Part shown: piece after piece, positions 9,152-64,000 of the stretch
How positions within the stretch are numbered: the stretch's first letter is position 1
Layout: every line of letters starts with the position of its first letter
Source: Patescibacteria group bacterium
Lineage (GTDB): Bacteria; Patescibacteriota; Patescibacteriia; JACQRZ01
NCBI GenBank assembly: GCA_038065125.1
Contig: JBBTRP010000006.1
Span: forward strand, 172 to 64,171
Reading direction: 5' to 3'
Length of the DNA: 64,000 nucleotides
The notes under the pieces: generated by a model
Databases searched by the model: none
What the model was told of the DNA's origin: nothing
The model's input: only the letters and a program-made list of their open reading frames with translations
Translations under genes and position numbers: made by a program

Positions 9152-10999
9152 TCAATTTTTTACTTCTTGAGTTGTGATCTGAATGAGGGCTTCGCAGGCG
9201 GCGCTGGCATTATTCCCGGCGCATTCTTTTTTGATATTTTCAAGCGCTGACATCAAGTTCGCTTGCCGCTCTGATCCGTGAAGCCGCGCAATAAAGATTT
9301 TTTCTAACGGGGTGGGAATCTCGCCGGCAATTAGGAGTTCTTCGGAGAGGCGCTCTCCCGGGCGGGGAGCGGTCGTGATGATTTGAATATCGATTTCAGG
9401 TTGATAGCCCGCAAGGCGGATCATTTCAGTGGCAAGGTCGCACACTTTGACGGGCGTGCCCATGTCAAGGCAGAAAATTTCCCCGTTTCCCGAGAGCGCT
9501 CCGGCTTGTAGGACCAGGAGGCACGCCTCTGATGTCACCATAAAGTATCGCTGCATGTCCGGGTGTGTAATTTCTACCGGGCCACCTTTTTTGATTTGCT
9601 CTCGGAAGATTTCTATCACGTTACCTTGTGAGTCAAGGACATTACCAAAGCGCACGGCGCAAAATGAGGTTTTGCCCGGCCCGGTTCCGTGGAGCTCGAC
9701 GCAGAGCATCTCCCCGACGCGTTTGGTGCGACCCATGACTGAGACCGGTCTGACCGCCTTGTCAGTCGAGATGAAAATGAATTTTTCCGCCGCATGTTCA
9801 ATCGAAGCACGCGCAACGGAGAGCGTACCGAAGATATTGTTTTTGATCGCCTCCAGGGGGTTTTCTTCCATCACCGGTACGTGCTTGTACGCGGCGGCGT
9901 GGAATACGATCTGGGGTTGCCGCTCGCTAAAGATCGCCGCGATTCGACCCTCATCACACACGTCCGTAACGATTCCGGCAAAGGGAGCATGGGGAAGTTT
10001 TTCCCGAATCGAACGGGAAAGATAAAACATTGCCGTCTCATTCTGATCAATGCCGATGACGGATTGTGGATGAAACGCGAGTAATTCGCGGATAAGCTGC
10101 GAGCCGATCGAGCCGGCGGCGCCAGTCACCAAGATCCTCTTGCCCTGAATAAAATCGCGCATAAGCCGTGTGTCGATTTTGACGGACTCGCGTCCCAGCA
10201 AATCTTCGATAGAAATGTCGCGAATAGTGGAGAGCGTTACCCGCCCTCCTATAACATCTTCGAGCGAGGGAAGGACTTTGAGGCGTGCAATATCGACCTG
10301 CTGTTCGCGTGCCGCGGCGATACATTTACGGATCTGTGGGTTTTCCGTTGCAAGAAGGACTTCGTCGATCGAGTACAACCGGAAGAGACGACCGAGATCT
10401 CCAAGTGTGCCGAGGACCGGGATGCCGTGGATCGTGGTGTGCTGTTTCACATTACTACCATCGAGAAAGCCGACCAGATGGTAGGTCGCGCTCATTAGGA
10501 GCGAGCGCGCAAGCTGCGCGGCGGCGTCCTCGGCGCCGATAATAAGGACTCTTTTCCCCGTGCGGTAGCGTCGCACGTCCCGTATCATTCGCTTGAGAAT
10601 TCGTACCGAACCCAAAAGGACAATCGAGAGGAGAAAATTCAGGAGCAGTGTCGAGCGAGGGAAGCTTTCGATGACGCCATAATCGCGGAGTACAAAGACG
10701 GTGAGAAGCTCGAGAAGCGTTACCAGGAGAACTCCTTTCAGGAGTTGGTACAAGTCTCTGATACTTACGAAAGAGAGATTGATGGTGTAGAGTTTTTGCC
10801 ACAAAAAAATCGGAATTGAGTAGGCGACATTCAGTGCGGAAAGGAGCACAAGGTTTCGCGTGAATATAGGGGGAAGAGCACCGTCGAAGCGCACGAGGAA
10901 GGCGGCAAGAGCCGCGACGCAGACGAGAAAAATATCGGCAGCGATAAATAGCGCATACCGATAAGGCGGTCGGGACAGGGTTGAATACAGTGAACTCAT
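9152..10999 (-). CDS. membrane-bound CapD/PglF/WbpM-family UDP-N-acetylglucosamine 4,6-dehydratase
   Basis: 4 N-terminal TM helices. Two Rossmann domains (ILVTGAAGSIGSQL, HAAAYKHVP, YxxxK context). Confidence 0.85.
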   Translation of the reverse strand: MSSLYSTLSRPPYRYALFIAADIFLVCVAALAAFLVRFDGALPPIFTRNLVLLSALNVAYSIPIFLWQKLYTINLSFVSIRDLYQLLKGVLLVTLLELLTVFVLRDYGVIESFPRSTLLLNFLLSIVLLGSVRILKRMIRDVRRYRTGKRVLIIGAEDAAAQLARSLLMSATYHLVGFLDGSNVKQHTTIHGIPVLGTLGDLGRLFRLYSIDEVLLATENPQIRKCIAAAREQQVDIARLKVLPSLEDVIGGRVTLSTIRDISIEDLLGRESVKIDTRLMRDFIQGKRILVTGAAGSIGSQLIRELLAFHPQSVIGIDQNETAMFYLSRSIREKLPHAPFAGIVTDVCDEGRIAAIFSERQPQIVFHAAAYKHVPVMEENPLEAIKNNIFGTLSVARASIEHAAEKFIFISTDKAVRPVSVMGRTKRVGEMLCVELHGTGPGKTSFCAVRFGNVLDSQGNVIEIFREQIKKGGPVEITHPDMQRYFMVTSEACLLVLQAGALSGNGEIFCLDMGTPVKVCDLATEMIRLAGYQPEIDIQIITTAPRPGERLSEELLIAGEIPTPLEKIFIARLHGSERQANLMSALENIKKECAGNNASAACEALIQITTQEVKN

Positions 11000-11970
11000 A
11001 GGAAACGGTAGAGAGCGAGTCCGCAGACTACAAGCGCGGCCTGAATACCATAGAGAATGAAGAGCGTTTTTTTGATCGAACCAACACGCCGGTGTAGCGC
11101 GTCATAGAAATGATCGCGATCCGCGAGGAGCGGCACCTGTTTTTTGAGCGTTCTTCGAATTATTATATAAATGCAATTCACGAGCGGCAAGCCGACCACC
11201 AAGAGGAGCGAGAGGATAAGAAGCGGGGAGAGAATCTTCAATGCAAAAAACATTTGAACACTGACGAGAAAGCCGAACAGATAGCTCCCATTATCACCGA
11301 GAAAAATCGATGCGGGGGGAAAGTTATGTAGAAGAAATCCAAGAGCCGCTCCGCCGGTTAGCGCCGCGATAATCATTCCAAGCGCATTTTGCTCGTGAAG
11401 GAATATGACGAAAAACCCAAGCGATGAGAGAGCCACCAATCCCGCCAGGAGACCGTCAAGTCCGTCGATAATGTTACTTGCGTTGATAAGGGTAATGAGA
11501 AGTACCGCGCCAATGAGTGACCCAACAAGGGTTGAGGTGGAAAGGATGACTCCTGCGTCGGCACTCATGAGGAGGACACTCGCAAGAGTGGCCATCACAA
11601 TTTGAGATACAATTTTTTGCAAAAGTGCAGGGGTACTTCGAACTTGCCACTTAAGGTCGTCCCACAGTCCAAAAAGCCACACGACGATGCCGGCAAGAAA
11701 AACAGTCCAGAGCGTGGGTGAGGCGTATAAAACTCCAAAAACTCCAAATGTTTCAGCGAGGGTGCTGCCAAGAGCAACTGCCGCAATACTGACGAGAATC
11801 GCAAGGCCGCCAAGGAATGGGATGGGTTTGTTATGGATCTTGAGGCCGTCGTTGGCCGGGTTGTCCGTGAAATTAAATAATCGCGCACCTCGCTTGATGA
11901 GAGGCAAAACGGCTGCGCATACCAAACCCCCCAGAAGGAATATCAGGCCCAGAAGTACCGGAAATGTCAT
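10996..11970 (-). CDS. polyprenyl-phosphate HexNAc-1-phosphate transferase (WecA/MraY family initiating transferase)
   Basis: Polytopic, about 10 TM. MraY/WecA motifs (NFTDNPANDGLKIHNKPIPFLGGLAI, NASNIIDGLDGL). 4-bp overlap with upstream gene. Confidence 0.8.
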   Translation of the reverse strand: MTFPVLLGLIFLLGGLVCAAVLPLIKRGARLFNFTDNPANDGLKIHNKPIPFLGGLAILVSIAAVALGSTLAETFGVFGVLYASPTLWTVFLAGIVVWLFGLWDDLKWQVRSTPALLQKIVSQIVMATLASVLLMSADAGVILSTSTLVGSLIGAVLLITLINASNIIDGLDGLLAGLVALSSLGFFVIFLHEQNALGMIIAALTGGAALGFLLHNFPPASIFLGDNGSYLFGFLVSVQMFFALKILSPLLILSLLLVVGLPLVNCIYIIIRRTLKKQVPLLADRDHFYDALHRRVGSIKKTLFILYGIQAALVVCGLALYRFL

Positions 11971-13196
11971 TGGTTGGTGATAAGTTTCAAGGCGTTACTG
12001 TAGGTTTCTGCAAGAGCTTCCCGGGTATAGTGCGCGGTCACAAACGAATATCCATTGCGACCCAGCTCTTCGCCCTTCTCGCGGTTACCGGCGAGAAAAA
12101 GGATTTTTTCCTTTAAATCATGAGGATTTTCCGGTTCGCAGAATACACCCGCGTGTGCCCCTTGTACCACAAGATCGCGCGCGGCACCGTCGATTGCGAG
12201 GATGACGGGCCTTGAACAGGCCATATAGTCAAAGACCTTATTCGGATAAACCGTCTTAAAAATATCAAGTTTTTTGAGTACCGCAAGCCCCGCATCGCAC
12301 GCCTCAATCATGTCGGCAATTTTTTCTTTCGGCATGGGATCGAGGAAGGCGACCTGTTTTAGTCCTTCTCGCTGTGCGCGATCCTGGAGTTCCTTCTTTT
12401 TCATGCCCTCGCCCATGAGCAGAAAAACAATATCCGCGCGGTCCTTGAGCAGCGCGGCGGCGTCAAGAATCTGGTCAAGGTGGTTCGCGATACCATGCGC
12501 ACCGATATAGAGTACTGTATATGCGTTCTCGATCCCGAGACGCTGTCGCATAATCTCGCGGGGCGTAGTGACGCGAAGTAAGTCCATATCCGCACCGTTG
12601 GGGAGGAGGATGATTTTTTCGCGCGGAACCTTCTTTTCGTCGATGAGCTTGTCGCGGAATGCTGGAGTAAGTACGGGAATTAGTGACGCTGCAAGGTACA
12701 GTTTTTTTTCGAGCCACAGCGCAGTGGCGATGAGAAAACGGTTTTTGAGGACCCCGACCTCGATAGCGGACTCCGGCCAGAGGTCGCGTACTTCAAAAAC
12801 CAACGGGATACGCCATCTCCAACTTGCAAGAAGCCCCGGTATGCCGACATGCAGGGGTGGCGAGGTCGCGATCACCACATCGGGCGTGCCGGCCATAAGC
12901 ACGCCAACACTCGCGCTCACGGTAAAAGAGAGATATCCCCACATGCGGCCTAAGAAATTTTTATTGTACGCATCAGAGACGAATGTGCGGATTAATGTGA
13001 CGTCATTATCTTTTTCAATTGCAATAAGTTTTCCGCGGTATTTTTGCGGCTTCGTGCCGGTCAGATAGTGCGCCATGCCACAGACCACCGTGACAGTGTG
13101 CCCCTCACGCGTCCAATATTTTGCAAACTGATTGAAGCGCGAAATCCCCGCACCGCCCTGCTCAAGATAGTATTGGTGGATGATAAGGATCTTCAT
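11967..13196 (-). CDS. glycosyltransferase family 4 (WbuB-like)
   Basis: GT-B fold. N-terminal MKILIIHQYY, C-terminal EGxxxxxxE region. Confidence 0.8.
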   Translation of the reverse strand: MKILIIHQYYLEQGGAGISRFNQFAKYWTREGHTVTVVCGMAHYLTGTKPQKYRGKLIAIEKDNDVTLIRTFVSDAYNKNFLGRMWGYLSFTVSASVGVLMAGTPDVVIATSPPLHVGIPGLLASWRWRIPLVFEVRDLWPESAIEVGVLKNRFLIATALWLEKKLYLAASLIPVLTPAFRDKLIDEKKVPREKIILLPNGADMDLLRVTTPREIMRQRLGIENAYTVLYIGAHGIANHLDQILDAAALLKDRADIVFLLMGEGMKKKELQDRAQREGLKQVAFLDPMPKEKIADMIEACDAGLAVLKKLDIFKTVYPNKVFDYMACSRPVILAIDGAARDLVVQGAHAGVFCEPENPHDLKEKILFLAGNREKGEELGRNGYSFVTAHYTREALAETYSNALKLITNQ

Positions 13197-15118
13197 ACCC
13201 TGCCTGCCTTCTCAATAAAAATTTGATGCCAAAGTGAGAAGGTGATGAGCGACCAGAGCTGATAGCTCGTGTCCCCGATATCTCGCTCGTGTGCACTCAC
13301 GAGCTGCTGGACTGCTGCAGCGTTGAAGTACTGCATCGATGGACGGTTGGGGGAGAGGAGGTCTGACCCGAGCTCCTGGAGCGATTTTTTCCACGATCGG
13401 ATCGGAAGCGCGAAACCGGTTTTTTTCTGATACACCAGATCCCTGGGAAGCGTTGCTTCCGCGAATTTTTTTACCACATATTTCCCCTCCACACCTCTCA
13501 ACTTGAATTGGAGGGGCAGCGAGAATGCAAACTCGATAATATCGCGGTCAAGAAACGGCGAGCGGACCTCGCAGCCCGATGCCATGCTCATCTTGTCGGT
13601 GTACATGAGGTTGTGCTCCGGGAGGAATGTCTTGAAGTCCGTGTAGAGTTGCCGCGTGAGAAGATCACGACTCCCAAAGCGTGCGAAGTGCCGACGTTTT
13701 GACGCGAGGGTGTCGAGAGGCACGACAGGCCTTGCAAGTAGATGCCCGACCTCCGAATCGGTCAGCCAAGCAGTGAGTCCCAGACTTCGCTCGTCGCGCG
13801 GGAGCACCAGGAATTTTCCCTTACGGACGAGATAGCGAATCCAGGAGTTGGTGTGGCTCAAGCGTTCCAAGGCGGGCGAACCTACCGAGAGTGCGATTTT
13901 GACGAGCGGATTTACGAGACACTGGACAGCGTCCAGGTTCCGGAGCTTCCAGGCCATGAGATAGTGATTGTATCCGGCAAAAAGTTCATCGCTTCCCATT
14001 CCCGAGAGAAGCACGGTGATGCCGCCGCGGCGCGCTTCACGGCAGATGAGATACGCGTTGATTTCGGCAGGATCCGTGATCGGTTCATCAAGGTGCCAAA
14101 TAACGCTGGGTAGGAGCTCGAGGAGATTCGGTTCGAGAATGAGCTCTCGATAGTCGATCCGAGGCCCGAGAAGATTTTTGAGTTGTCGAGCAAAAACAAG
14201 TTCGTTTTTTCCCGCAGTGTCCCGGTGTGTGTCGACTGCGCGAAACCCGGTGGTGAAGGAGACCAGAGGCTCATCGGTGAATTCGCAGGCGTGTCGGACA
14301 ATAAGACTTGAGTCTAGTCCGCCCGAAAGAAAGGCGCCGACTTTCACGTCTGCAATCATATGACGTTTGACTGCCGAGCCAAACAGACGTCCGAACTCGT
14401 CGACTGCATCAGTGAACGTGCCGGAGAACGGCGTCACTCGCTCAAGGGGATTCCACCACTCCTTGAGTGTCACGGTCCCGTCTTTCCACAAAAGAGAATG
14501 GGCTGCGGGGAGCTTGAAGATTCCCTCAAACATAGTGCCGGGTTCGTGCACGCGCAGGGAGGCGAGGTACCCCGGGATTGCAGTAGTGTTGACGCGAGGA
14601 GAGACGAGGCCGGATGCAAGGATCGCCTTGATCTCGGATGCCCACACGAGACTGCCGTCCGGCAGGTGTGAGTAGTACAAAGGTTTTTGGCCGGTATGAT
14701 CGCGCGCAAGGAGCAGCGTATTCTCGCGTTGATCCCAGAGCGCAAGCGCGAACATGCCGTTGAATTTGGACAGCGCGTCCGCGCCCCACGCTCTGACGCT
14801 TTCCACAATAACCTCGGTATCCGATCTAGAGCGGAACGTGTGTCCGAGGTGCTCAAGGTCCGCTTTGATTTCTCGGAAGTTATAAAGCTCACCGTTGTAG
14901 GTGATCCAGAGTTTTTGTGACTCGTCGCTCATCGGCTGGTGTCCCGCTGGGGAGAGATCGAGAATTGCCAGACGGCGCATGCCCAGGAAGACGTTCCATT
15001 CGCCCGCACGGCGCACGACGGTGCCGCGGTCGTCGGGGCCACGATGCGCGATGCGATCCGTCATCGCATCGATAGGTACGGTGTTATTTTTTGTAATTGC
15101 TCCGACGATGCCGCACAT
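13193..15118 (-). CDS. asparagine synthetase B-like glutamine-dependent amidotransferase (WbpS-like)
   Basis: MCGIVG N-terminal nucleophile Cys. SGGLDSS PP-loop. Confidence 0.85.
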   Translation of the reverse strand: MCGIVGAITKNNTVPIDAMTDRIAHRGPDDRGTVVRRAGEWNVFLGMRRLAILDLSPAGHQPMSDESQKLWITYNGELYNFREIKADLEHLGHTFRSRSDTEVIVESVRAWGADALSKFNGMFALALWDQRENTLLLARDHTGQKPLYYSHLPDGSLVWASEIKAILASGLVSPRVNTTAIPGYLASLRVHEPGTMFEGIFKLPAAHSLLWKDGTVTLKEWWNPLERVTPFSGTFTDAVDEFGRLFGSAVKRHMIADVKVGAFLSGGLDSSLIVRHACEFTDEPLVSFTTGFRAVDTHRDTAGKNELVFARQLKNLLGPRIDYRELILEPNLLELLPSVIWHLDEPITDPAEINAYLICREARRGGITVLLSGMGSDELFAGYNHYLMAWKLRNLDAVQCLVNPLVKIALSVGSPALERLSHTNSWIRYLVRKGKFLVLPRDERSLGLTAWLTDSEVGHLLARPVVPLDTLASKRRHFARFGSRDLLTRQLYTDFKTFLPEHNLMYTDKMSMASGCEVRSPFLDRDIIEFAFSLPLQFKLRGVEGKYVVKKFAEATLPRDLVYQKKTGFALPIRSWKKSLQELGSDLLSPNRPSMQYFNAAAVQQLVSAHERDIGDTSYQLWSLITFSLWHQIFIEKAGRV

Positions 15119-15124: not shown

Positions 15125-15152
15125 TAGCCGTTAGCTTTTAGCCGTTAGCTTT
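15125..15152. repeat. perfect 14-bp tandem duplication (TAGCCGTTAGCTTT)x2 at the SDR stop codon / asnB-like start junction
   Basis: Read directly: tagccgttagcttt tagccgttagcttt tagctggg. Confidence 0.8.
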
Positions 15153-16079
15153 TAGCTGGGAATAATAATCTCGCCAATACTGGAGGAGGTGGGGGAGGGT
15201 GTTGTTGAGGAAATCGAATTGAGGGTGCCAGCCGGTTTCGCGCGTCAGTTTTTCGTGCGACCCGACACTGACTGAAGGCTCTCCGGATACGGACTCACAA
15301 ATCTCGATGGGCACCTTCGCAAGCCCAACCGCCGCCTGAGCGATCTGGCGGATCGAGAGCTGACGACCTGAGCAGACATTAAAGATGTCACCTTTCATTT
15401 CGTGCTCCAGAAGGAGCTGATACGCAGACACCACGTCTCCAACATCGAGATAATCGCGCAGATTCTCTGGATTTTCAATATGAATAATCGGCTTGCGCAA
15501 GCCTTGTTCGATCTGCGCTATCTGCTGTAAAAGACTACTCACGAATGTGATCGGTTTTTGTCCACCTCCCGAATGTTGGAACGGGCGTACTATGGTGAGT
15601 GGTATTTGATGTCGATCGGCAAAAAATTTCGCACAGCACTCCGCACCGTATTTACTGAGCGCATAGGGTGTGTCAAGCGAGAGGAGCGACTCCTCAGCGA
15701 TTGGGTCTGGGGAAGGGGAGTACACGGCAGATGAACTTACCAAAATGACGCCAGTGTGTGCAGTTCTGCACGCATCAAGCACGGCAAGAGTTCCTTCGAT
15801 ATTCGTCTCAATGGTTACTTGAGCACCCTGAACGGTTCTTGATGAGGGTCCGTGCGCGGCGGCAAGGTGAATCACGGTGTCGGGCTTCAGGTCAGAGACG
15901 ATACGCGAAACGCCTGAGGCGTCAGTGACGGAGCAGTTAAATGTCTGACCGCGCAGGAGAGCGGGCGGATGCGAATCTTTTCGCGTAATACCAAACACCT
16001 CATACCCCGAAGCAATCAAAGAAGCGGCAAGATGCCTCCCCACGAATCCATTCACTCCGGTAATCAGTATTTTTTTCAT
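15138..16079 (-). CDS. NAD-dependent sugar epimerase/dehydratase (extended SDR)
   Basis: ILITGVNGFVGRHL glycine-rich motif. YxxxK (YALSKYGAE). Confidence 0.8.
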   Translation of the reverse strand: MKKILITGVNGFVGRHLAASLIASGYEVFGITRKDSHPPALLRGQTFNCSVTDASGVSRIVSDLKPDTVIHLAAAHGPSSRTVQGAQVTIETNIEGTLAVLDACRTAHTGVILVSSSAVYSPSPDPIAEESLLSLDTPYALSKYGAECCAKFFADRHQIPLTIVRPFQHSGGGQKPITFVSSLLQQIAQIEQGLRKPIIHIENPENLRDYLDVGDVVSAYQLLLEHEMKGDIFNVCSGRQLSIRQIAQAAVGLAKVPIEICESVSGEPSVSVGSHEKLTRETGWHPQFDFLNNTLPHLLQYWRDYYSQLKANG

Positions 16080-16897: not shown

Positions 16898-17508
16898 AGC
16901 TTGACCCCAAAGGCGATAGTGTCCATCCAGAGAGGCGCAAAGCGACCAATATGGCGAAATGCGGGCGCAAGACCGCGCTTACGTAAAAGATTGTGCAGCG
17001 CCCGGTCAGAAAAAAAACGGATATGCGGTCCGGTGACGTCAAAGTGCTTATCGAATCCAATTAGTGCGAGAATGAAATTTTTTACATACCCGTGAAATGG
17101 AGTTGTGATGAAGAAAAATCCGCCGGGCGCAAGTACCCGAGCAATCTCCGTGACGAATTGCTCGGTATCATACACATGCTCAATCACTTCCGCGCAAAAA
17201 ATTGCGTCAAATTGTCCTGGCGCGTAGGGGAGTGTGCCGTTCGATCGAATGAGATCGAACGAGATATGAGGAAACGATGTTTGTGCTTTGCGAATGGCAG
17301 TTTCGGATAGGTCGACGCCGGAAATATTAAAACCAAGTTTTCCGATACGGTCAGTGAGCGCACCATCGCCGCAACCGATGTCGAGAATTGATTGCGGCCT
17401 ACTCTGCTGAATATGATTCAGAAATAAAGACAACCGAATTGGAGAAAGAGGGTCATTTTCCGGCGGGGCTTCGTGTTGCCAATAGGTGTTATAGTACTCT
17501 CTGCTCAT
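16894..17508 (-). CDS. class I SAM-dependent methyltransferase
   Basis: ILDIGCGDGALT motif I. Methyltransf_11-like order. Confidence 0.8.
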   Translation of the reverse strand: MSREYYNTYWQHEAPPENDPLSPIRLSLFLNHIQQSRPQSILDIGCGDGALTDRIGKLGFNISGVDLSETAIRKAQTSFPHISFDLIRSNGTLPYAPGQFDAIFCAEVIEHVYDTEQFVTEIARVLAPGGFFFITTPFHGYVKNFILALIGFDKHFDVTGPHIRFFSDRALHNLLRKRGLAPAFRHIGRFAPLWMDTIAFGVKL

Positions 17509-54027: not shown

Positions 54028-54049
54028 TCAAGAAACAAGTTACGCATTC

Positions 54050-55704: not shown

Positions 55705-55705
55705 T

Positions 55706-56401: not shown

Positions 56402-57336
56402 TTATCACGGGCGCAGACGGGTTCATAGGTCGAAACCTCTTCGACTTTTTTGCATCACATAAGGAGTATGATGTTTGGGGGACGTATCACCTCAAAAAAT
56501 CATTCGATCATCCTAATCTTATTCAGGCTGATTTGATGCGTCGTGAGGATGTATCACGCATCTGTACGGGCGCAGACATCATTGTCCACGCCGCAGCAGT
56601 TACCTCCGGGGCGAAGAATATAGTATCGCGACCCTATATTTATGTGACAGACAATACAATCATGAACACCCTCCTGTTTCAGGAGGTATATGACAGATCA
56701 ATTTCACGATTCATTTTTTTTAGTTGCTCCGTAATGTACCCGATGGATCGTACTGTTCCCGTGAAGGAAGAAGACGTCGATCTTGAGAACGGCATCCATC
56801 GAGCGTACTTCGGCGGTGCTTGGATGAAGGTGTACGCAGAAAAAATTTGTGAGTTTTATTCGCGATTAGGACGCACGTCGTTTACGGTGATTCGACATTC
56901 GAACATCTACGGCCCTCATGACACTTTTGACCAAGATAAAGCGCATGTGTTTGCCGCAACGATTCTTAAAGTGATGAACGGCAAGGACTCAATCACCGTG
57001 TGGGGAGACGGGTCGGAGCGGCGAGATCTTCTCTATATCGACGACCTCATTCGTTTCGTCGGTCTTGCTCTCGCAAAACAGAAATCTCCGTATGAGCTAG
57101 TTAATGTCGGGGTTGGCCGCGCAGTGTCAGTTGCAGAGCTCGTATCAAGAATTGTCACACATTCCGGCAAGAAACTACAGATACATTTTGATCCATCGAA
57201 ACCGACAATTCCGAGCAGGCTCGCGCTTGATTACTCAAAAGCCCGCGAGCTGTTCAATTGGGAGCCAAGCACAACACTGGATGATGGCATTAAAAAAACT
57301 CTTGACTGGTACGGTCGTCAGTCTTTGGCGACCTGA
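56383..57336 (+). CDS. NAD-dependent epimerase/dehydratase (extended SDR)
   Basis: IVITGADGFIGRNL. YAEKICE-region YxxxK. Confidence 0.8.
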   Translation: MPTKKIVITGADGFIGRNLFDFFASHKEYDVWGTYHLKKSFDHPNLIQADLMRREDVSRICTGADIIVHAAAVTSGAKNIVSRPYIYVTDNTIMNTLLFQEVYDRSISRFIFFSCSVMYPMDRTVPVKEEDVDLENGIHRAYFGGAWMKVYAEKICEFYSRLGRTSFTVIRHSNIYGPHDTFDQDKAHVFAATILKVMNGKDSITVWGDGSERRDLLYIDDLIRFVGLALAKQKSPYELVNVGVGRAVSVAELVSRIVTHSGKKLQIHFDPSKPTIPSRLALDYSKARELFNWEPSTTLDDGIKKTLDWYGRQSLAT

Positions 57337-58349
57337 ACCGAATCACGAAAGACATTATATTTTGTGTCAGACGCGGTACGGTGAGCAAGAAACCATTTGA
57401 CGGTTTCGCGGATTCCGTCCTCAAGCGCAACGCGGGGTGCGTAGCCGATGGATTTTGCACGCTCTATATCCATAATTCGGATTGCGTCGCCGCTCTTTTT
57501 TGAACTATCCCACACAACGTTTGGCGGCTGTGGAAATGCTGCGCAGATTGCGTCGACGAGCTGTCGAATACTCACTCCTGTTCCCGAGCCAAGGTTGATC
57601 GGACGACCATCCGCATGTTCCATTGCAAGGAGCATTCCATGCGCGACGTCTTGCGAATGGACAAAGTCACGGATTTCCGAACCGTCGCCCCAGACAGTGA
57701 GCGGGTTTTCGCCATCCGCAATTCTTCGAATGAGCGAAGGGATCACCATGGCATTAGCTGGGTCAAAATTATCAAAAGGCCCATAGGTGTTTGCCGGGCG
57801 AACGATCGCGATTTTCGTCCAGCCATATTCGATCGCGTACGCTTCTGCCTGCAACTCTCCCATGCGCTTTGCCCATCCGCCGAACCAGTCGAGCCTCGAG
57901 GGCATTGTCTTCCAAACATCATCTTCAAAAAACCGCTGAGCAGGTCCATAGACGCCGAGGGTGCTTGTGTAGAGATAACGCTTTACACCAGAGACTCGTG
58001 CAGCTTCCATCATGTTGGTGTTGAATAAGATGCCGGGCACGAAAATACTCGCGGGACGCGACAGTGTCGTGCCGGCGCCGACTTTTATTCCGGCGAGATG
58101 GAAGACGAACTCAATTCCCTCACACGCCTTTAGACAGTTCTGATACTGCATGAGGTTCAGCTTGATGCATTCGACGCCCTCGGGCATTCCCTTCTGCTCA
58201 TCAAGCGAAACGACGCGGACGCGTGCACCTAGGTCAACTAATTGAGAGACGAGCTGTCTTCCAATCATTCCAGTGCCGCCAGTTACAAGAATACTCTTGT
58301 TCAAATAGATACTTTTGTCCATGTGCTTACTATTTTTGTGATGTTTCAC
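57318..58349 (-). CDS. NAD-dependent epimerase/dehydratase (extended SDR)
   Basis: ILVTGGTGMIGRQL. Start may be the internal Met at 58322. Confidence 0.8.
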   Translation of the reverse strand: MKHHKNSKHMDKSIYLNKSILVTGGTGMIGRQLVSQLVDLGARVRVVSLDEQKGMPEGVECIKLNLMQYQNCLKACEGIEFVFHLAGIKVGAGTTLSRPASIFVPGILFNTNMMEAARVSGVKRYLYTSTLGVYGPAQRFFEDDVWKTMPSRLDWFGGWAKRMGELQAEAYAIEYGWTKIAIVRPANTYGPFDNFDPANAMVIPSLIRRIADGENPLTVWGDGSEIRDFVHSQDVAHGMLLAMEHADGRPINLGSGTGVSIRQLVDAICAAFPQPPNVVWDSSKKSGDAIRIMDIERAKSIGYAPRVALEDGIRETVKWFLAHRTASDTKYNVFRDSVQVAKD

Positions 58350-58480: not shown

Positions 58481-59749
58481 ATGAATAGGAAGAATCTTCC
58501 CACTCTGTATGTGGAGAGCGGAGCTTCTCTGGTAGTCCACAACCGCATCTCTGACAGCGAATTTGCGGCTGCTCAAGACAGGCTGCCTATTCCGTCGACC
58601 GATATTGTCGTGATCAACCTTCAACGAAGAACACTGTATCTCGCTCGGCGGAGTTCTGCACCGGCTGCCGGCCAGTACTGGTGGTTCGGCGGCGCTATGG
58701 TAAAGAGTGAGACCGACCTCCAGGCGGCGCAAAATCGTTTCAGGGACGAAGCAGGGCTCTATCTACCCGAGAACCGTTTTGAATTTGTACGAGCATTCGA
58801 CAATATTTGGGCGGATCGCTGTCAGGAGCCATGCCGCAATGGTGTCCACTTCAAAACTCGTCTCTTCACTGTCGACTTACGGCCAGACGAGCTGGAGGCC
58901 GTACAAAGAAAGGTTGATGACGAGGAGGTTCACTTTTCGTCTCCACTCATGGAGTGTGACCGAAGTGAACTGAACTGGCGGCACCATGCCGGCCAAATCC
59001 CTTCCACGGTTCTTGACGCATATGACGCGATCTTTGCTCCGCAGCAGTTCGCGACCAAGGAGGAATGGTTCGAGCTCCTCATACGCATCTATGGCGACTC
59101 CGTGTCTGCCGTGTATGTCGATGCGGGAAATCGAATCACCTACATCTTCGGTCAAACTAAAGACAACCAGGGGGAGGTCCTCGATGCAGTTTCCGGGCCG
59201 ATGCCTAGTCGCCCAGTTTCTAGACTGATCGCGATCCCGACACTGGAGGCTGGATACGGTTTTCCCGGATACGCCGCATGGAGAAAAGATCTTCTTGAAC
59301 GGGGATTCGATGAGCAGAACATCATCGGCATCGACGAGGCTATAGACCTCGTGCAGCCCTGCACTTCCGCGGAAGCTCTCGGGCTTGTCCGGTGGTTGCA
59401 GGGTCACCCCGAGGTGACGGTCGTTTATATCGTGGCGACGCGGTTGCATATGGCGCGGGTTTTCATTACAACTGTCAGTGCGCTCTATCGCTTGGGCATG
59501 ACACAAGTGAAGGTGTATGCGGCGCCGACGGATGCAGCGTCATGGTGCGAGCACGTCACCCACTCGCAAGGGGTTGAAACCGGCATGCGGCTCGACCTTC
59601 TGCAAGGAGAGCTGGTCCGGATCGAGCGGTACTACGAAAAGTCCGCGAGAGACCCTGATGTTGTCGGGCTGGTGTCTGCCCGCAAGGTACTTGATTATCT
59701 TAACGCTCGCAGCACTCTCGAAACCGTGGTGGAATCAAGCACTCTGTAA
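58481..59749 (+). CDS. Nudix-like hydrolase domain fused to DUF218/YdcF-like domain (hypothetical)
   Basis: Degenerate Nudix box GGAMVKSETDLQAAQNRFRDEAG. C-terminal YdcF-like segment (VVYIVATRLHMARVF). Confidence 0.55.
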   Translation: MNRKNLPTLYVESGASLVVHNRISDSEFAAAQDRLPIPSTDIVVINLQRRTLYLARRSSAPAAGQYWWFGGAMVKSETDLQAAQNRFRDEAGLYLPENRFEFVRAFDNIWADRCQEPCRNGVHFKTRLFTVDLRPDELEAVQRKVDDEEVHFSSPLMECDRSELNWRHHAGQIPSTVLDAYDAIFAPQQFATKEEWFELLIRIYGDSVSAVYVDAGNRITYIFGQTKDNQGEVLDAVSGPMPSRPVSRLIAIPTLEAGYGFPGYAAWRKDLLERGFDEQNIIGIDEAIDLVQPCTSAEALGLVRWLQGHPEVTVVYIVATRLHMARVFITTVSALYRLGMTQVKVYAAPTDAASWCEHVTHSQGVETGMRLDLLQGELVRIERYYEKSARDPDVVGLVSARKVLDYLNARSTLETVVESSTL

Positions 59750-59791
59750 GGGTGCTTCTTTATTTTATGCTCCATGCTAGAGTGAGACCGT

Positions 59792-60955
59792 ATGAACGTG
59801 ACCATTTCTGTCGGAGGAAAGTTCCAAGCGTTTGATCTTGCGAGAGAGCTTGAAAAGAGAGGAGGGCTTTCGCGACTAATTACGTCGTACCCCCGTTCAT
59901 TTCTGGACCCATACGAGGTTCCGCGGTCGAAGGTGCGCTCTGTTCTTCTCAAAGAGGGGATTGAGCGGGCATGGAAGCTGTTACCGTTTAGATTAAGAAC
60001 GTGTTTGAATCCACAGAACCTTGCGTGTGAGACGTATGACAGAATTGCAGAGCAGCTGCTCCCGGGCGAGATAGACATTTTTGTTGGCTTCAGTTCGTTT
60101 TCACTTCACAGTTTGCGAGAAGCAAAAAAGCGCGGAGCAAAAATCGTTATCGAGCGCGCAAGCTCGCACATCGCGTACCAAGACAAGCTCTTGCGTGAGG
60201 AGTATAATAGGCTCGGCACCACAATTTTTCCCTGGCAGCTCTCTCACCCGAAGAATATCGAAAAGGAGCTACTTGAGTACGAGGAGGCAGACTTCATTTC
60301 CGTTCCTTCAACGTTTGTAAAAAATACTTTTCTCGAGTATGGCTTTCCACCCGAGAAGATTGTTGCCATTCCTTACGGTGTAGATGTGCGCATGTTCAGC
60401 CCCACTGTCAAGCGCGACTCGGTTTTCCGACTCATCTTCGGCGGGGGTCTCGTAATCCGCAAGGGCGTACACTATCTTCTGCAGGCCTTCGCGGAGCTTA
60501 ATCTACCCAAAGCCGAGCTCCTTCTTATTGGTCCGGTGACAGAAGAGATTAGACCATTTTTAAAAAAGTATGCCGGATCTTTTAGACAAATCAACTATCA
60601 GCCGCTCTCTGAACTATACAACTTCTACTCCCAAGGTTCTGTTTTTGTTTTTCCTTCACTCGAGGAGGGGCATGGCCTTGTAATCTCCCAGGCTATGGCG
60701 TGCGGCTTACCGGTTATCGTGTCTACAAACACTATTGCGCATGACTTGGTCCGGGAGGGCGCTGACGGGTTTGTGATCCCAGTCCGTGACGTCGATGCGC
60801 TCAAGGAAAAAATACTTTTTTTCTATAATCACCCAGAAAAGAGAGATGAAATGGGCGAGAGTGCCTTACAACGCATGAGACGCTCATTCACTTGGGATGA
60901 GTATGGTGATACAATGATGCGTGCCTATAAAATGATATGCCAATCAGCACGATAG
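59792..60955 (+). CDS. glycosyltransferase family 4
   Basis: VFVFPSLEEGHGLVISQAMACGLPVIV. Confidence 0.8.
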   Translation: MNVTISVGGKFQAFDLARELEKRGGLSRLITSYPRSFLDPYEVPRSKVRSVLLKEGIERAWKLLPFRLRTCLNPQNLACETYDRIAEQLLPGEIDIFVGFSSFSLHSLREAKKRGAKIVIERASSHIAYQDKLLREEYNRLGTTIFPWQLSHPKNIEKELLEYEEADFISVPSTFVKNTFLEYGFPPEKIVAIPYGVDVRMFSPTVKRDSVFRLIFGGGLVIRKGVHYLLQAFAELNLPKAELLLIGPVTEEIRPFLKKYAGSFRQINYQPLSELYNFYSQGSVFVFPSLEEGHGLVISQAMACGLPVIVSTNTIAHDLVREGADGFVIPVRDVDALKEKILFFYNHPEKRDEMGESALQRMRRSFTWDEYGDTMMRAYKMICQSAR

Positions 60956-61998
60956 TCCGCGAAGACATTAAGGTAATTGTCGAAAGCCTTTCGAGTGACT
61001 TGCAGACATTTACTGGTAAATCCGTTCTTGTGACAGGTGGGTGCGGTTTTTTGGGAAGATACCTGATAGCGACATTACTGGAGATGAATGAGAATCTCTC
61101 TATCCCTTGTAAAGTTATATGCGCGGATACATTCATTACTTCTTCTCGGGAGCAGGCAATCTTTGACTCCGACGATCCCAACTTTACCCTTCTGGAGCAC
61201 GATGTGTGCGTGGAGTTGCCGCAGCATATTCGGCCCGACTACATTATCCATGCCGCTGGACTTGCGTCGCCTTTTTACTACCGCAAACATCCGATCGATA
61301 CGATGCGCGTATCAGTTGAGGGTACGCGTACACTACTCGATCGCGCTCGATTTGCGGGTACGAGTAAAATAATTTATTTTAGCTCATCGGAAATCTACGG
61401 CGACCCTGTTCCTGAATGTATTCCCACGCCCGAAACGTACTGGGGAAATGTTTCATGTCTTGGCCCTCGCGCGTGCTATGATGAATCCAAGAGGCTCGGT
61501 GAGACGATTTGTAGCGTCTACCAGTCACTATACGGAGTCCCTGTTTCTATCGTCAGGCCGTTTAATGTATATGGACCTGGGGGACTTGCCGCCCAGGATT
61601 TTCGAGTCATCCCTGCGTTCCTCACGGCAGCTTTTGCGGGGAAAAAGATGCCGGTACACGGCAAAGGGAATCAGACGAGGACATTTTGCTATATGACAGA
61701 CGCAATTGTCGGTTTCTTTAAGGTGCTTCTACATGGAAGGCCTGGCGAGGCGTATAATATTGGGCACAATCAAGATGAAATCAATGTGATCTCGCTTGCT
61801 CACGTCATTACAGAGCTGATCGGCGGGGGTACTCAAGAGCTTGTTGACTATCCGGAGACATACCCTGCGGGCGAGCCTCAGCGACGCTGCCCCGATCTAT
61901 CCAAGGCGCAGCGGGAGCTTCATTTCTCCCCGACAATTGATTTGCGATCTGGTCTTATTCGAACGATTCAATGGTATAGAGAGAGTCAGTTGATATGA
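60937..61998 (+). CDS. UDP-glucuronate decarboxylase (UDP-xylose synthase/ArnA-decarboxylase-like SDR)
   Basis: VLVTGGCGFLGRYL. SSSEIYGDP, YDESKRLGE, RPFNVYGP are characteristic UXS motifs. Confidence 0.85.
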   Translation: MPISTIVREDIKVIVESLSSDLQTFTGKSVLVTGGCGFLGRYLIATLLEMNENLSIPCKVICADTFITSSREQAIFDSDDPNFTLLEHDVCVELPQHIRPDYIIHAAGLASPFYYRKHPIDTMRVSVEGTRTLLDRARFAGTSKIIYFSSSEIYGDPVPECIPTPETYWGNVSCLGPRACYDESKRLGETICSVYQSLYGVPVSIVRPFNVYGPGGLAAQDFRVIPAFLTAAFAGKKMPVHGKGNQTRTFCYMTDAIVGFFKVLLHGRPGEAYNIGHNQDEINVISLAHVITELIGGGTQELVDYPETYPAGEPQRRCPDLSKAQRELHFSPTIDLRSGLIRTIQWYRESQLI

Positions 61999-62780
61999 TG
62001 AATGCTCACCAAACAACAGAGGCGTGGAGAAGAGTCATGACCCCAGAGAGTTATCGTGAGACGGTTACCTCACAAACGGAGCTCAAGCGCGTTACCTCAT
62101 TCTCACGCCTCTGGAGACGTATCTTTCGTCACCTACCACCAGTCAGCCTCGATACGCTTGCAATATTTGAGGCTGGCTGCGGAGGGGGGAAACACCTCGC
62201 ACCGTTTGCATACGCCGGCGCGCGCATCTCCGGACTTGACTGCTCAGAAGCAGCGATTCTCAACGCGCGACAGTTATTTGTAGATATTGAGCGCATCTCC
62301 GGTAAGAACCTGTCTGCGACCCTTGAGTGTGGAGATTTTTTTGTATATAACTCGAAATCAAACTATGACATTGTTTTCCACTCCGGGGTTATTGAACACT
62401 TTTTGGATGCAGGTGAGAGAATACAGTTTTTAAGAAAAATGACCTCGTGTGTAGTGAGTGGAGGAACGGTCGTCTCAATAGTTCCCAACGGTTGTCACCC
62501 GCTGCGTGGTCGTATGAAAAAAGAGGGTCTGGGCGGCTATCTAATTCCTGAAATTGATTATACGCCAGAGCTCATGCATGCAGAATTTGAAGAGGCGGGT
62601 CTCGAAAATGTGACGATTCTTGCGCATAACCTTTTCGACTACCTGACACTCGATAAACCTTCCGTATTTGCCCGAGTTGCATACATTGGGTTACAGCTTT
62701 TATCGCCGAATCTTTTCCCATTATCATTTTCGAGTCGCCACGCCGGCACCCTCATTGCACTTGGCACTGTTCGACGATAA
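61995..62780 (+). CDS. class I SAM-dependent methyltransferase
   Basis: IFEAGCGGGKHL motif I. Confidence 0.75.
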   Translation: MMNAHQTTEAWRRVMTPESYRETVTSQTELKRVTSFSRLWRRIFRHLPPVSLDTLAIFEAGCGGGKHLAPFAYAGARISGLDCSEAAILNARQLFVDIERISGKNLSATLECGDFFVYNSKSNYDIVFHSGVIEHFLDAGERIQFLRKMTSCVVSGGTVVSIVPNGCHPLRGRMKKEGLGGYLIPEIDYTPELMHAEFEEAGLENVTILAHNLFDYLTLDKPSVFARVAYIGLQLLSPNLFPLSFSSRHAGTLIALGTVRR

Positions 62781-62783
62781 GAA

Positions 62784-64000
62784 ATTGTTGTTATGGATGA
62801 TTTGAGAGAGCGCGTTCTAATTTCGGTGGTGCGATACGTCTCCTACGGAGTTTTTATTATTCCGTTGTTTATTACGCGGACCACATTTTTTCCGTATATA
62901 TTCGGCAAGATGCTCGTATTCCAGGCGCTTGTTGAAATTGGGGGTTTGGCGTGGCTGCTCCTTGCGATGATGTCTCCTCGATATCGACCATCATGGCGTA
63001 ATCCGATCGTTTCTAGCGTTACGGCGTTTATCGGCGTCCTCGTTATAAGCACTTTTGTAAGTACGTCGCCCCAAGCATCGCTGTGGTCAAGTCAGGAGCG
63101 TATGACCGGATTAGTCGCGCTTCTTCATTTCTGGCTATGGTTCCTGACGCTTCACGCCTGCTTCCGCTCCTCAAGGGAGTGGGATCAGTTCATTCGTTTC
63201 AGTATCGTCATCTCACTCGTTGTTGGACTCTATGGCCTCGGACAGAAGTTTCATCTGCCGTTTGTCATGCCAAACGCCACTGGTGAGAGGCTTGCATCAA
63301 CACTGGGAAATCCCATTTATCTCGGGATCTATTCGATGATTCATGTTTTTCTATCCGGAATTCTGGCGCTAAAAGCGACCTCAAGAAAAGGAATCTTTTT
63401 TTATAGTGCATTAGTGGTTTTTAACGTAGCGATACTTTTATTATCCTATAGTAGGGGGGTGTTTTATGTATTTCTTCTCTCCTGCGTTATCCTCGCGATA
63501 TACGCGGTGATGCTAAGGGTCAAAAAATTCTCATGGGCCGCCGTCGCAGGCTCACTCGGAATAATAATCCTTTTGATATTCGGCCTTCTCTGGATTCGAT
63601 CACCGGCCGCGTCTGCGTATCTATCAAAAACCCCCGAAGCATTTCAAAGAGTCATCACGCGTAATGTCGTCGACAACGATCGCATCGCGCTGTGGTCGGT
63701 GGGCATACGCGGCTTTCTGGAAAGGCCGCTTTTCGGCTGGGGCTTGGAAAACTTCAATCTCGTTTATTATAAATTGACGCACCCTACTGAGCGAGGAGCT
63801 CATTTGCAACAGGCGTGGTTTGATCGATCGCACAATCAAGTTATTGATATACTCTCGCTGAGTGGTGTCATCGGATTTACGGCCTACGCTGCTGTCTGGG
63901 TGCTCCTCATGGGGTGTTTGATGCGGCATATACGGAAAGCGCTATCCGTCCGCGAGAAATTGTGCAGTGCAGCGCTCCTTGTACTCTTTGGCGCCTATTT
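62784..64000 (+). CDS. O-antigen ligase/polymerase-like polytopic membrane protein (Wzy_C domain), 3' end beyond window
   Basis: Frame translated by hand is open to the window end, so it is absent from the ORF track. About 10 TM. Wzy_C signature SHNQVIDILSLSGVIG (HNxxL..G). Confidence 0.65.
   Translation, partial: MVVMDDLRERVLISVVRYVSYGVFIIPLFITRTTFFPYIFGKMLVFQALVEIGGLAWLLLAMMSPRYRPSWRNPIVSSVTAFIGVLVISTFVSTSPQASLWSSQERMTGLVALLHFWLWFLTLHACFRSSREWDQFIRFSIVISLVVGLYGLGQKFHLPFVMPNATGERLASTLGNPIYLGIYSMIHVFLSGILALKATSRKGIFFYSALVVFNVAILLLSYSRGVFYVFLLSCVILAIYAVMLRVKKFSWAAVAGSLGIIILLIFGLLWIRSPAASAYLSKTPEAFQRVITRNVVDNDRIALWSVGIRGFLERPLFGWGLENFNLVYYKLTHPTERGAHLQQAWFDRSHNQVIDILSLSGVIGFTAYAAVWVLLMGCLMRHIRKALSVREKLCSAALLVLFGAY

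Follow-up and report, generated by a model that had tools for sequence, protein, structure and literature searches.

Introduction

Bacterial loci of the Wzx/Wzy type, as described for O-antigens and capsules and for Enterococcus (epa), Lactococcus (cwps) and Leptospira (rfb), combine genes for sugar-nucleotide biosynthesis with Leloir glycosyltransferases, an initiating transferase, a Wzx flippase and a Wzy-family protein. In the wall-polysaccharide loci of Gram-positive bacteria the product is attached to the wall by a LytR-CpsA-Psr (LCP) transferase. O-glycosylation and S-layer systems such as those of Neisseria (PglL), Geobacillus (WsaB) and Tannerella (PMC6120980) share a PglF/CapD-type dehydratase, a phosphoglycosyl transferase, Wzx and a Wzy_C protein. 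Here we describe a glycan-biosynthesis locus in a stretch of 64,000 nucleotides, called the window in the following (GenBank assembly GCA_038065125.1, contig JBBTRP010000006.1, positions 172 to 64,171 of the forward strand), which derives from a bacterium of the Candidate Phyla Radiation (CPR). The locus resembles both kinds of systems in the gene families listed, an LCP gene neighbors it as well, and one of its Wzy_C proteins carries C-terminal TPR repeats. Unlike the described Wzx/Wzy loci, it belongs to a CPR host with a presumably sub-megabase to about 1-Mb genome, spans 71 kb or more, counts 65 or more genes, has a duplicated assembly machinery, and no chain-length regulator was found within 80 kb. 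The Leptospira loci may be of comparable size. All components can be placed in known families, and the locus as a whole follows the scheme of Wzx/Wzy-type surface-glycan loci; the unusual features are size and host. We consider it probable, at roughly 80%, that this is a chromosomal glycan-biosynthesis super-locus of an uncultivated groundwater CPR bacterium, and that it fills the space between tRNA-Val and lepB, in which relatives carry no such insert.

For several specialized parts of the locus, described counterparts exist as well. In the scheme of Kelly et al. (2024; PMC11127046) a polyprenyl-phosphoribose synthase dependent on phosphoribosyl pyrophosphate (PRPP), a phosphatase, an optional epimerase of the short-chain dehydrogenase/reductase (SDR) family, a flippase of the MOP family and a GT-C glycosyltransferase act together, and side-chain pentofuranoses are added outside the membrane. 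E1 pairs which add pyruvate-derived two-carbon branches to 4-keto deoxysugars are known from the paulomycin, avilamycin and kosinostatin pathways (PMC4802897). CPR genomes in general encode many glycosyltransferases and cell-surface modifications (PMC12911398), and our literature searches found no published description of a glycan locus of such scale in a CPR organism.

Results

Extent and Integrity of the Glycan Locus

In a preliminary description of the window a glycan locus of more than 54 kb with about 50 genes had been proposed. The listing of open reading frames (ORFs) and a non-overlapping gene model bear this out: 53 ORFs, none of them interrupted, lie between positions 9152 and 64000, and 98% of this segment is coding. 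Fifteen adjacent gene pairs overlap by 4 bp, and the coding strand switches about 14 times across the block. Pfam was run on every ORF and NCBIfam on the enzymes, and scores were judged against the curated cut-offs of NCBI (given below as score vs. cut-off). Together with PDB sequence searches and one fold search, these analyses assigned 45 of the 53 genes to glycan-related families. The assigned set comprises 13 SDR-type sugar-nucleotide enzymes, nine Leloir glycosyltransferases, one initiating transferase of the WecA type, one Wzx and one Wzy_C protein, two C-methyltransferases and two other S-adenosylmethionine (SAM)-dependent methyltransferases, an AsnB-type amidotransferase and a UDP-ManNAc dehydrogenase. 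It further includes a UbiA-type phosphoribosyltransferase, a GT-C protein, heptose-pathway enzymes, an alpha/beta pair of a thiamine diphosphate (ThDP)-dependent E1 enzyme and a ColD-like 3-dehydratase. Four genes have no obvious glycan role (19996-20811, IMPase/CysQ-like; 23873-24976, DAO family; 51510-52493, 2-hydroxyacid dehydrogenase; 52490-53026, DJ-1/PfpI), and four remained unassigned (20961-21764, 35516-36625, 45944-47542 and 54955-55704). Curated cut-offs were passed for the models WecC, AsnB type, RfbG, RmlD and HAD-IB, and scores near the cut-off were obtained for Gmd, RfbF, PPPRS (UbiA), HldE kinase and GmhB.

The locus had been thought to end at a ligase-like membrane protein, which proved to be incorrect. 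The respective Wzy_C gene is cut by the end of the window, and on overlapping contigs (L004, L090) glycan genes run on for at least 16 kb and can be followed to about 80.4 kb (window-equivalent coordinates). The 71 kb and 65 genes counted for the locus are thus lower bounds, and the right end lies beyond the approximately 80.4 kb covered.

The same sequence is present at 99.6-100% identity in at least six assemblies or runs, and metagenome contigs of ENA and Logan with the exact TopA and other proteins of the window originate from the Hainich groundwater well H52 and related samples. Window positions 14,982-36,436 are 99.995% identical, without gaps, to a part (L085) of the 78.4-kb contig Hain_H52_02um_R3_115, which by coordinates begins at about window position 9,019. 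A second Hainich contig matches positions 1-9,073 with two mismatches and stops at 9073. The tRNA junction between both parts is bridged by two assemblies of about 5x coverage, NODE_123 (70.9 kb) and NODE_2417 (18.4 kb). Their differences from the window are mainly small indels, which split three genes there; these frameshifts are absent from the window, and the Hainich contigs of 8x coverage match it gaplessly over the common stretches. The frameshifts in the 5x contigs are best read as low-coverage errors. With uninterrupted ORFs and frameshifts confined to the 5x contigs, a pseudogenization of the block is not supported.

Host and Chromosomal Setting

When GTDB genomes were scanned, the LCP protein yielded no confirmed relative, and the taxonomic placement was based on TopA instead. 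The two best matches, both from metagenome-assembled genomes (MAGs) of Candidatus Uhrbacteria, show 64% and 62% identity, and the next-best ones derive from Kerfeld-, Falkow-, Kuenen- and Buchananbacteria. Judged by these TopA matches, the host is therefore placed in a CPR lineage that resembles ABY1 and lacks closely related species representatives. This agrees with the CPR-type organism considered earlier and with the NCBI source name, Patescibacteria group bacterium.

The left boundary of the glycan block is formed by a tRNA-Val(cac) gene (9012-9087, plus strand; identified with ARAGORN), the sole tRNA noted there, and the block starts 65 nt past it. In L006, the closest relative with a long contig (Uhrbacteria), genes for TopA, a SOD-like protein, AhpC, RelA/SpoT, a PEGA protein, LCP and tRNA-Val(cac) are immediately followed by the signal peptidase gene lepB. 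LepB, tRNA-Val(cac) and LCP also adjoin in L013 and L052, and lepB lies beside tRNA-Val(cac) in L011 and L012. The block thus occupies the site of lepB in the relatives; like a genomic island it is adjacent to a tRNA gene and absent from the same site in these five relatives. According to this gene order the block was inserted into the tRNA-Val/lepB slot or has expanded there. At about 9100-9143, 13 nt past the intact tRNA, the 3' half of tRNA-Val is repeated in degenerate form, from the anticodon loop to the T-arm (26 nt at 88% identity, E 0.047), and the Hainich assembly break coincides with the tRNA and this partial copy. The copy may be the scar of a past integration or excision. No distal copy of the tRNA 3' end was detected in the window, L004 or L090, and Pfam scans revealed no integrase or transposase in the accessible 80 kb. 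The GC content of the genes is 49.0% in the block and 51.3% in the flank.

On the other side of the tRNA, the LCP transferase is encoded (7353-8858, minus strand; PF03816 123.5 bits, PF13399; one N-terminal transmembrane helix). From its position an attachment of the glycan to the wall had been deduced. The protein is an LCP transferase and hence a candidate enzyme for the attachment of a lipid-linked glycan to the wall; its pairing with tRNA-Val, however, is kept in relatives which carry lepB and not the glycan locus, and its adjacency is therefore weak evidence of a functional link. By synteny, LCP belongs to the conserved backbone and not to the inserted block. Next to it, positions 6095-7444 encode a PEGA-domain protein with an N-terminal transmembrane or signal segment, which is syntenic in L006 (25% identity) and could be a wall- or S-layer-associated protein, possibly a glycan acceptor. 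Farther upstream (3063-4520, minus strand), a Fe/Mn-SOD C-terminal-domain protein, an AhpC/peroxiredoxin and a rubredoxin, as called from overlapping contigs, make up an oxidative-stress cluster, which is notable for an organism of an anoxic well. SOD-like and AhpC genes are also present in L006.

Assembly Machinery Within and Beyond the Window

The block begins on the minus strand with the genes for a membrane-anchored UDP-HexNAc 4,6-dehydratase of the CapD/PglF/WbpM type (9152-10999; PF02719 332 bits, three transmembrane helices) and for the first initiating transferase, a polyprenyl-phosphate HexNAc-1-P transferase of the WecA/MraY family (10996-11970; PF00953 92 bits, ten transmembrane helices). 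On the plus strand follow a Wzx-type flippase of the MOP superfamily (31923-33455; PF01943 65 bits, twelve transmembrane helices) and, at the window end, the truncated Wzy_C family protein (62793-64000; PF04932 56 bits, eleven transmembrane helices), which is complete on an overlapping contig and has 629 aa. An initiating transferase (PF00953) and a Wzx protein (PF01943), as expected of a Wzx/Wzy locus, are thus both present.

Past position 64000 (L004, L090) the membrane and assembly genes encode a Wzy_C-TPR protein of 688 aa, an initiating transferase of the WcaJ/EPS type, a third Wzy_C protein of 427 aa and a second Wzx/MurJ-like flippase. The WcaJ-type Bac_transf protein reaches 267 bits vs. 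296 with TIGR03025 on a partial sequence, and the second Wzx (L090) matches PF01943, PF13440 and PF03023; no NCBIfam equivalog match was obtained for the Wzx flippases. Further genes in this part encode a membrane protein of 487 aa, a methyltransferase, a GT4-GT2 fusion, two GT4 proteins, a 395-aa protein and an APS-kinase-like protein. Three proteins of the full region carry PF04932 (Wzy_C), a domain common to polymerases, WaaL ligases and O-oligosaccharyltransferases.

In total, the full region encodes two initiating transferases of different classes, two Wzx flippases, three Wzy_C proteins and two GT-C paralogs. This duplicated assembly machinery argues for more than one assembly line, and at least two products are therefore to be expected rather than the one highly decorated glycan that the preliminary description had assumed.

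Predicted Sugar-Nucleotide Pathways

The pathways deduced from UDP sugars are encoded mainly at the left end of the block. The CapD-type dehydratase, which scores below the cut-offs with PseB (151 bits) and FnlA (127 bits), stands beside the WecA-type transferase (75 bits with the WecA model, also below cut-off), in agreement with the UDP-GlcNAc branch proposed earlier. On the same strand follow a GT4-type glycosyltransferase (11967-13196; PF00534, PF13579) and an AsnB-type glutamine amidotransferase (13193-15118; TIGR01536 429 bits vs. 267), a candidate for the amidation of a uronic acid that also reaches 421 bits with the XrtA/PEP-CTERM amidotransferase model. The adjoining minus-strand genes (15138-19845) encode an SDR epimerase/dehydratase, a GT2, a SAM methyltransferase, a GT4 and the UDP-ManNAc dehydrogenase WecC (NF008286 475 bits vs. 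459). The UDP-ManNAcA branch with its amidotransferase, as proposed before, can be regarded as a firm prediction on the basis of these scores. Near the right end, the SDR at 60937-61998 is closer to human UXS1 (198 bits) than to RmlB (111 bits), which fits the UDP-xylose pathway proposed earlier; no UDP-glucose dehydrogenase is encoded in the locus, and the substrate could therefore be another UDP-uronic acid. This SDR is part of a plus-strand group (58481-62780) consisting of a protein with a Gmm-like NUDIX N-terminal domain, a GT4, the UDP-glucuronate decarboxylase-like SDR and a SAM methyltransferase. The NUDIX domain resembles GDP-mannose mannosyl hydrolase (PDB 2gt4, 29 bits, E 4e-6).

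A CDP branch had also been suggested, and the genes at 38405-41751 (plus strand) support it. They encode a GmhA-like SIS isomerase, a glucose-1-P cytidylyltransferase-like protein (RfbF, 256 bits vs. 300), CDP-glucose 4,6-dehydratase (RfbG, 426 bits vs. 278) and an RmlD-type reductase (238 bits vs. 224). Directly upstream (33452-38392, mixed strands) are 3-C-methyltransferase 1, an Fcl-like SDR, a 369-aa protein (minus strand), 3-C-methyltransferase 2 and an RmlC-like cupin. Both C-methyltransferases carry PF08421 and PF08484 (Methyltransf_13/14) and are related to solved NDP-sugar 3-C-methyltransferases (PDB 4rv9, 218 bits; TcaB9, 188 bits), so that the expected two C-methyltransferases and two further SAM methyltransferases were recovered. 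The ThDP pair predicted to act in C2 branching was found as well: the E1 alpha/beta pair matches PF00676, PF02779 and PF02780 and has the ThDP motif GDA-x27-NN. It belongs to a group on mixed strands (53116-58349) which also comprises a 249-aa protein with a weak cupin match, a HAD-IA phosphatase and two Fcl-like SDRs. The same enzyme families for C-methyl groups and two-carbon branches act in the deoxysugar tailoring of actinomycetes (TylC3/TcaB9/KijD1; Plm8/9, AviB1/B2) and in the lipopolysaccharide (LPS) biosynthesis of Coxiella; in contrast to the actinomycete pathways, the branching enzymes are here embedded in a lipid-carrier surface-glycan machinery. The nucleotide carrier of the branched sugars is probably CDP or GDP and not dTDP, because the sole RmlA-like enzyme is closest to a cytidylyltransferase.

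For the GDP-mannose branch, likewise postulated before, a GDP-mannose 4,6-dehydratase is present (Gmd, 399 bits vs. 415), in a group on mixed strands (41765-47542) composed of a GT2, Gmd (minus), a GT2 with a C-terminal transmembrane helix, a GT4 (minus) and a polytopic 532-aa protein (45944-47542, minus). A single-sequence AlphaFold2 model of the latter was unusable, with a predicted local distance difference test (pLDDT) score of 43. The four Fcl-like SDRs of the block reach 128-137 bits vs. 500. The sole DegT-family protein is encoded at the start of the next group (47626-51460, plus strand), which is made up of this ColD-like 3-dehydratase dependent on pyridoxamine phosphate, two SDRs and a small GT2. 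Its best PDB match is ColD/WbdK with 178 bits, compared with 128 bits for CDP-E1 and 108 bits for aminotransferases. It has a His at the position of ColD His188 (G-H-Q aligned to S-H188-H), and no E3 of the ferredoxin-reductase type (RfbI) was found in the block. An identity as CDP-E1 (RfbH) was ruled out by the higher ColD score. From the ColD-like score, the His188 position and the lack of an E3 reductase it follows that the 3-dehydratase is likely to act on a GDP and not on a CDP sugar, and a GDP-linked sugar of the colitose type is the better reading for the 3,6-dideoxy product. The 3-dehydratase of the preliminary description is thus retained, with a GDP sugar as its predicted substrate. 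Of the CDP-3,6-dideoxyhexose pathway, RfbG passes and RfbF comes near the cut-off, and the RfbH/RfbI pair was not recovered. With the GDP-colitose pathway of enterobacterial O antigens (Gmd, ColD, ColC), the locus shares a Gmd-like enzyme, a ColD-like enzyme with the active-site His and Fcl/ColC-like SDRs. It differs in that ManB and ManC are not encoded in the window, that Gmd and ColD are non-adjacent and that several alternative reductases make the end product uncertain. Behind the ColD group lie the minus-strand genes of a D-2-hydroxyacid dehydrogenase and a DJ-1/PfpI protein (51510-53026).

The heptose pathway postulated earlier was recovered in part. A heptose-7-P kinase of the HldE-domain-I type, fused to a cupin, and a GmhB-type heptose bisphosphate phosphatase (30020-31926, plus strand) score near their cut-offs (TIGR02198 298 bits vs. 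345; NF006506 154 vs. 178), whereas GmhA (95 bits vs. 276) and the HddA-like kinase (143 vs. 600) are weak and only a single nucleotidyltransferase is encoded, the RfbF-like protein, to which the HddC model gives only 72 bits. It is plausible that a heptose branch exists which is incomplete in the window. The architecture of the kinase (30020-31405) is unusual, as it carries a C-terminal cupin resembling mannose-6-P isomerase where an adenylyltransferase domain is usual. The HddA-like GHMP sugar kinase is part of the plus-strand group 19996-24976, together with an IMPase/CysQ-like phosphatase, a 267-aa protein, a GT4 and a FAD oxidoreductase of the DAO family. The IMPase/CysQ-like protein (19996-20811) does not reach the cut-offs of the models CysQ (71 bits) and HisN (119 bits). 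The APS-kinase-like protein is the last one encoded in the sequence covered (L090:12364-12909; about 79.9-80.4 kb window-equivalent), and some of its homologs are annotated as cytidine diphosphoramidate kinase, an enzyme of the O-methyl phosphoramidate (MeOPN) pathway of Campylobacter. The occurrence of both proteins suggests a decoration of the glycan by sulfation or phosphoramidate.

A Predicted Polyprenyl-Phosphate Pentofuranose Module and a GT-C Family

A polyprenyl-phosphate-sugar route had been proposed for the window, and the respective genes form a compact module. At 26439-30071 (plus strand) a HAD-IB phosphatase and two 3-beta-HSD/HpnA-like SDRs are encoded directly upstream of a UbiA-type polyprenyl-phosphate phosphoribosyltransferase. 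The UbiA protein falls just short of the cut-offs of the decaprenyl-phosphate phosphoribosyltransferase models (NF008977 226 bits vs. 234; NF008978 206 vs. 207) and contains the Asp-rich motif NDxxDxxxD, here NDIRDCDDD. The stand-alone HAD-IB hydrolase (26439-27143; 101 bits vs. 98), a candidate phosphoribose phosphatase, also stands beside a GT-C gene in L091. A candidate flippase for the lipid-linked donor is the Wzx-type protein encoded 1.9 kb downstream of UbiA, which may just as well transport the repeat unit.

To this route a further enzyme can be added. The ORF at 24982-26436 (minus strand) encodes a polytopic protein of 484 aa without any Pfam or NCBIfam match. A word-indexed search found one homolog, exhaustive HMMER searches about 260 cluster representatives. 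The AlphaFold2 model calculated from a 70-sequence alignment is of high quality (pLDDT 94.5, predicted template modeling score 0.94), and the fold search supports GT-C. In the family, Asp D31 is nearly invariant and lies just past the first helix, the site of the catalytic acid of GT-C enzymes. The N-terminal motif of the family is YPxPxxDSxxFxPPAIN. On the basis of this model the protein can confidently be assigned as a GT-C glycosyltransferase of an uncharacterized family; its predicted donor is a polyprenyl-phosphate sugar, and the transfer would take place outside the membrane. A direct comparison gave no sequence relation of the 532-aa membrane protein to this family. A second paralog (L090:4482-5945, about 72.0-73.5 kb window-equivalent; 30% identity, E 9e-61) is located beside the second Wzx.

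The best homolog of the GT-C protein (P0034, 31% identity) belongs to a glycan locus of 35.5% GC (L091), in which UbiA, SDR, GT-C and HAD follow one another; its SDR is 33% identical to SDR3 of the window and its UbiA protein 34% to the one described here. The recurrence of the module in this unrelated locus points to an extracytoplasmic pentofuranosylation. Two radical-SAM/SPASM proteins are also encoded among the glycan genes of this locus (L091:12193-15297). In L089 and L093, the GT-C homologs adjoin E1 alpha/beta pairs and a GT2 (234 aa in L093) and not UbiA, and this neighborhood of E1, GT2 and GT-C hints at a second conserved module. In view of the homologs beside E1/GT2 and the paralog beside Wzx, it is probable that several lipid-linked donors are in use across the family. 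The small GT2 of the window (50750-51460) has weak matches to AglJ and Dol-P-hexose transferase and weakly resembles polyprenyl-phosphate (dolichyl-phosphate) hexose synthases.

With the systems of Kelly et al. (PMC11127046) and the mycobacterial decaprenyl-phosphoarabinose pathway, the module shares a UbiA-type candidate synthase, a putative phosphatase, SDR epimerase candidates, a nearby protein of the MOP flippase family and an enzyme of the GT-C fold. Compared with the described pentofuranosylation systems, the phosphatase is a separate HAD-IB protein and not a fused PRP domain, two SDRs are present instead of one, and the GT-C enzyme, whose counterpart in those systems belongs to GT136, has no Pfam match. 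The mycobacterial pathway differs by its DprE1-type FAD_binding_4 enzyme, which was absent here in the Pfam and NCBIfam searches; a DAO-family flavoprotein is encoded nearby instead. As this is the sole flavoenzyme, an epimerization of the DprE1/DprE2 kind was ruled out.

Discussion

From the gene families, the integrity and extent of the locus, its taxonomy and synteny and the GT-C fold, a course of biosynthesis can be proposed in which substrates, order of steps, number and identity of the products and mode of anchoring are predicted elements. In the cytoplasm, a 4-keto-6-deoxy-HexNAc derivative would be formed from UDP-GlcNAc, and UDP-ManNAcA would be synthesized and then amidated. CDP-4-keto-6-deoxyglucose would give rise to C-methylated, epimerized and reduced derivatives, and GDP-mannose to a further set, among them a 3,6-dideoxyhexose of the colitose type. 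The supply may be completed by a heptose, by UDP-xylose or a similar pentose, and by a sugar with a two-carbon branch from pyruvate. Oligosaccharides on polyprenyl phosphate would be started by the WecA-type HexNAc-1-P transferase and the WcaJ-type hexose-1-P transferase, extended by the products of at least 13 Leloir glycosyltransferase genes, modified by the methyltransferases and flipped across the membrane by the two Wzx proteins. Outside the membrane, Wzy_C proteins would polymerize or transfer the oligosaccharides, and the GT-C enzymes would add side-chain sugars from polyprenyl-phosphate donors. In one of these donors the sugar may be a pentofuranose that the UbiA-type synthase, the HAD phosphatase and the SDR epimerases derive from PRPP. 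The products could be anchored to peptidoglycan by the neighboring LCP transferase or to proteins by a PglL/WsaB-like Wzy_C enzyme.

Several observations weigh against this interpretation or restrict it. WecB, ManC, Ugd and PRPP synthase are not encoded in the accessible sequence and only one nucleotidyltransferase is present in the locus; as WecB, ManC and UDP-glucose dehydrogenase are lacking in the window, several branches would depend on genes elsewhere. Scores below the curated cut-offs were obtained for GmhA, the HddA-like kinase, the CapD subtype, WecA and the Fcl-like SDRs. Pfam searches of the window, L004 and L090 found neither a Wzz/GNVR chain-length regulator nor a dedicated exporter in the 80 kb; a regulator may be encoded in the remaining 7 kb of the NCBI contig or at another site. 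Within the Wzy_C proteins the roles of polymerase, ligase and O-oligosaccharyltransferase cannot be told apart by sequence. Members of the GT-C family are also encoded where UbiA is lacking (L089, L093 and the surroundings of the L090 paralog), and the donor in the present locus is deduced from adjacency only.

As to the origin of the locus, one could think of an artifact of assembly or binning by which a foreign glycan locus was joined to a CPR backbone at the tRNA, since the Hainich assembly breaks exactly there (the first contig reaches 9073, and the second begins at about 9019) and a partial tRNA repeat lies at the break. Such a chimera, which the preliminary description had named as an objection, is extremely improbable. 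The sequence is found in at least six assemblies, the junction is bridged by the independent assemblies NODE_123 and NODE_2417, coverage is similar on both sides (8x for both Hainich contigs, according to their names), the GC contents of locus and flank differ little, and the NCBI record holds both parts on one contig of 87.6 kb (87,632 bp). A genuine locus could be either a recently acquired integrative island at tRNA-Val or a long-resident, gradually expanded one, and both are compatible with the proposed function. Its position directly after the tRNA gene, where relatives have lepB, and the degenerate 3'-half copy speak for the island. We nevertheless regard a recent acquisition as rather doubtful, with no integrase, transposase or distal direct repeat in the accessible 80 kb and no marked compositional deviation; in addition, the TopA identity to the nearest relative available does not exceed 62-64%, and the insertion could therefore be old.

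With regard to the product, the uninterrupted block free of housekeeping genes, and the single Wzx and single Wzy_C protein within the window, could be taken for one assembly line in which all of the approximately 65 genes serve the repeat unit of a single very complex, LCP-attached glycan. We consider this unlikely, because the full region comprises two classes of initiating transferases and the duplicated Wzx, Wzy_C and GT-C genes, a redundancy typical of two or more adjacent pathways, and because the coding strand switches frequently. Still far less probable is the synthesis of a glycosylated small molecule, for instance an oligosaccharide resembling an antibiotic, in place of a surface polymer. 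This idea is suggested by the 3-C-methyltransferases and E1-type branching enzymes, which are best known from deoxysugar pathways of actinomycetes: the closest solved relatives of the C-methyltransferases are the mycarose, TcaB9 and KijD1 enzymes, and E1 pairs occur in the antibiotic pathways cited above (PMC4802897). The block, however, contains no genes for polyketide synthases, nonribosomal peptide synthetases, terpene or other aglycone biosynthesis, and it encodes lipid-carrier initiating transferases, Wzx, Wzy_C and GT-C proteins with LCP as a neighbor. Furthermore, C-methyl branched sugars are also constituents of surface glycans, for example virenose in the LPS of Coxiella, which likewise counts against a small molecule. 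A super-locus for surface glycans with more than one product therefore remains the preferred interpretation.

CPR bacteria are regarded as metabolically minimal and dependent on physical contact with other cells, and to our knowledge the chemistry of their envelope is essentially undescribed. Hainich Patescibacteria MAGs enriched on 0.2-µm filters have an average size of 883 ± 204 kb (PMC8672522); if the present genome is of typical size, the locus would account for about 8% of it. With its rare and energetically costly sugars, a locus of this size shows that surface glycosylation can rank among the largest biosynthetic investments of such a genome. For the specialist, the GT-C family with the conserved UbiA-SDR-HAD module, the presence of two SDRs and the antibiotic-type branched-sugar enzymes within a surface-glycan machinery are of interest. 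The GT-C proteins represent a new candidate glycosyltransferase family with about 260 sequence clusters, and the PRPP-dependent extracytoplasmic pentofuranosylation known from Proteobacteria and Actinobacteria would, as predicted, extend to CPR bacteria. The GT-C family, the UbiA-SDR-HAD module and the E1 branching pair offer themselves for probing with lectins or antibodies, for metatranscriptomics and for heterologous expression.

A more far-reaching picture, which we put forward only tentatively and hold to be less likely than its alternatives, is that of a CPR genome of about 0.9-1.2 Mb which devotes about 6-8% to one super-locus with a new GT-C family, a two-SDR pentofuranose route and branched deoxysugars, for a coat that serves recognition or evasion. 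Epimerization at both C2 and C3 by the two SDRs would then give lyxofuranose, a sugar absent from all solved glycan structures in the survey of Kelly et al. (PMC11127046), and C-methyl and two-carbon-branched deoxysugars otherwise typical of antibiotics would be part of a surface glycan. In that case the coat could chiefly determine how the episymbiont recognizes host cells or escapes phages.

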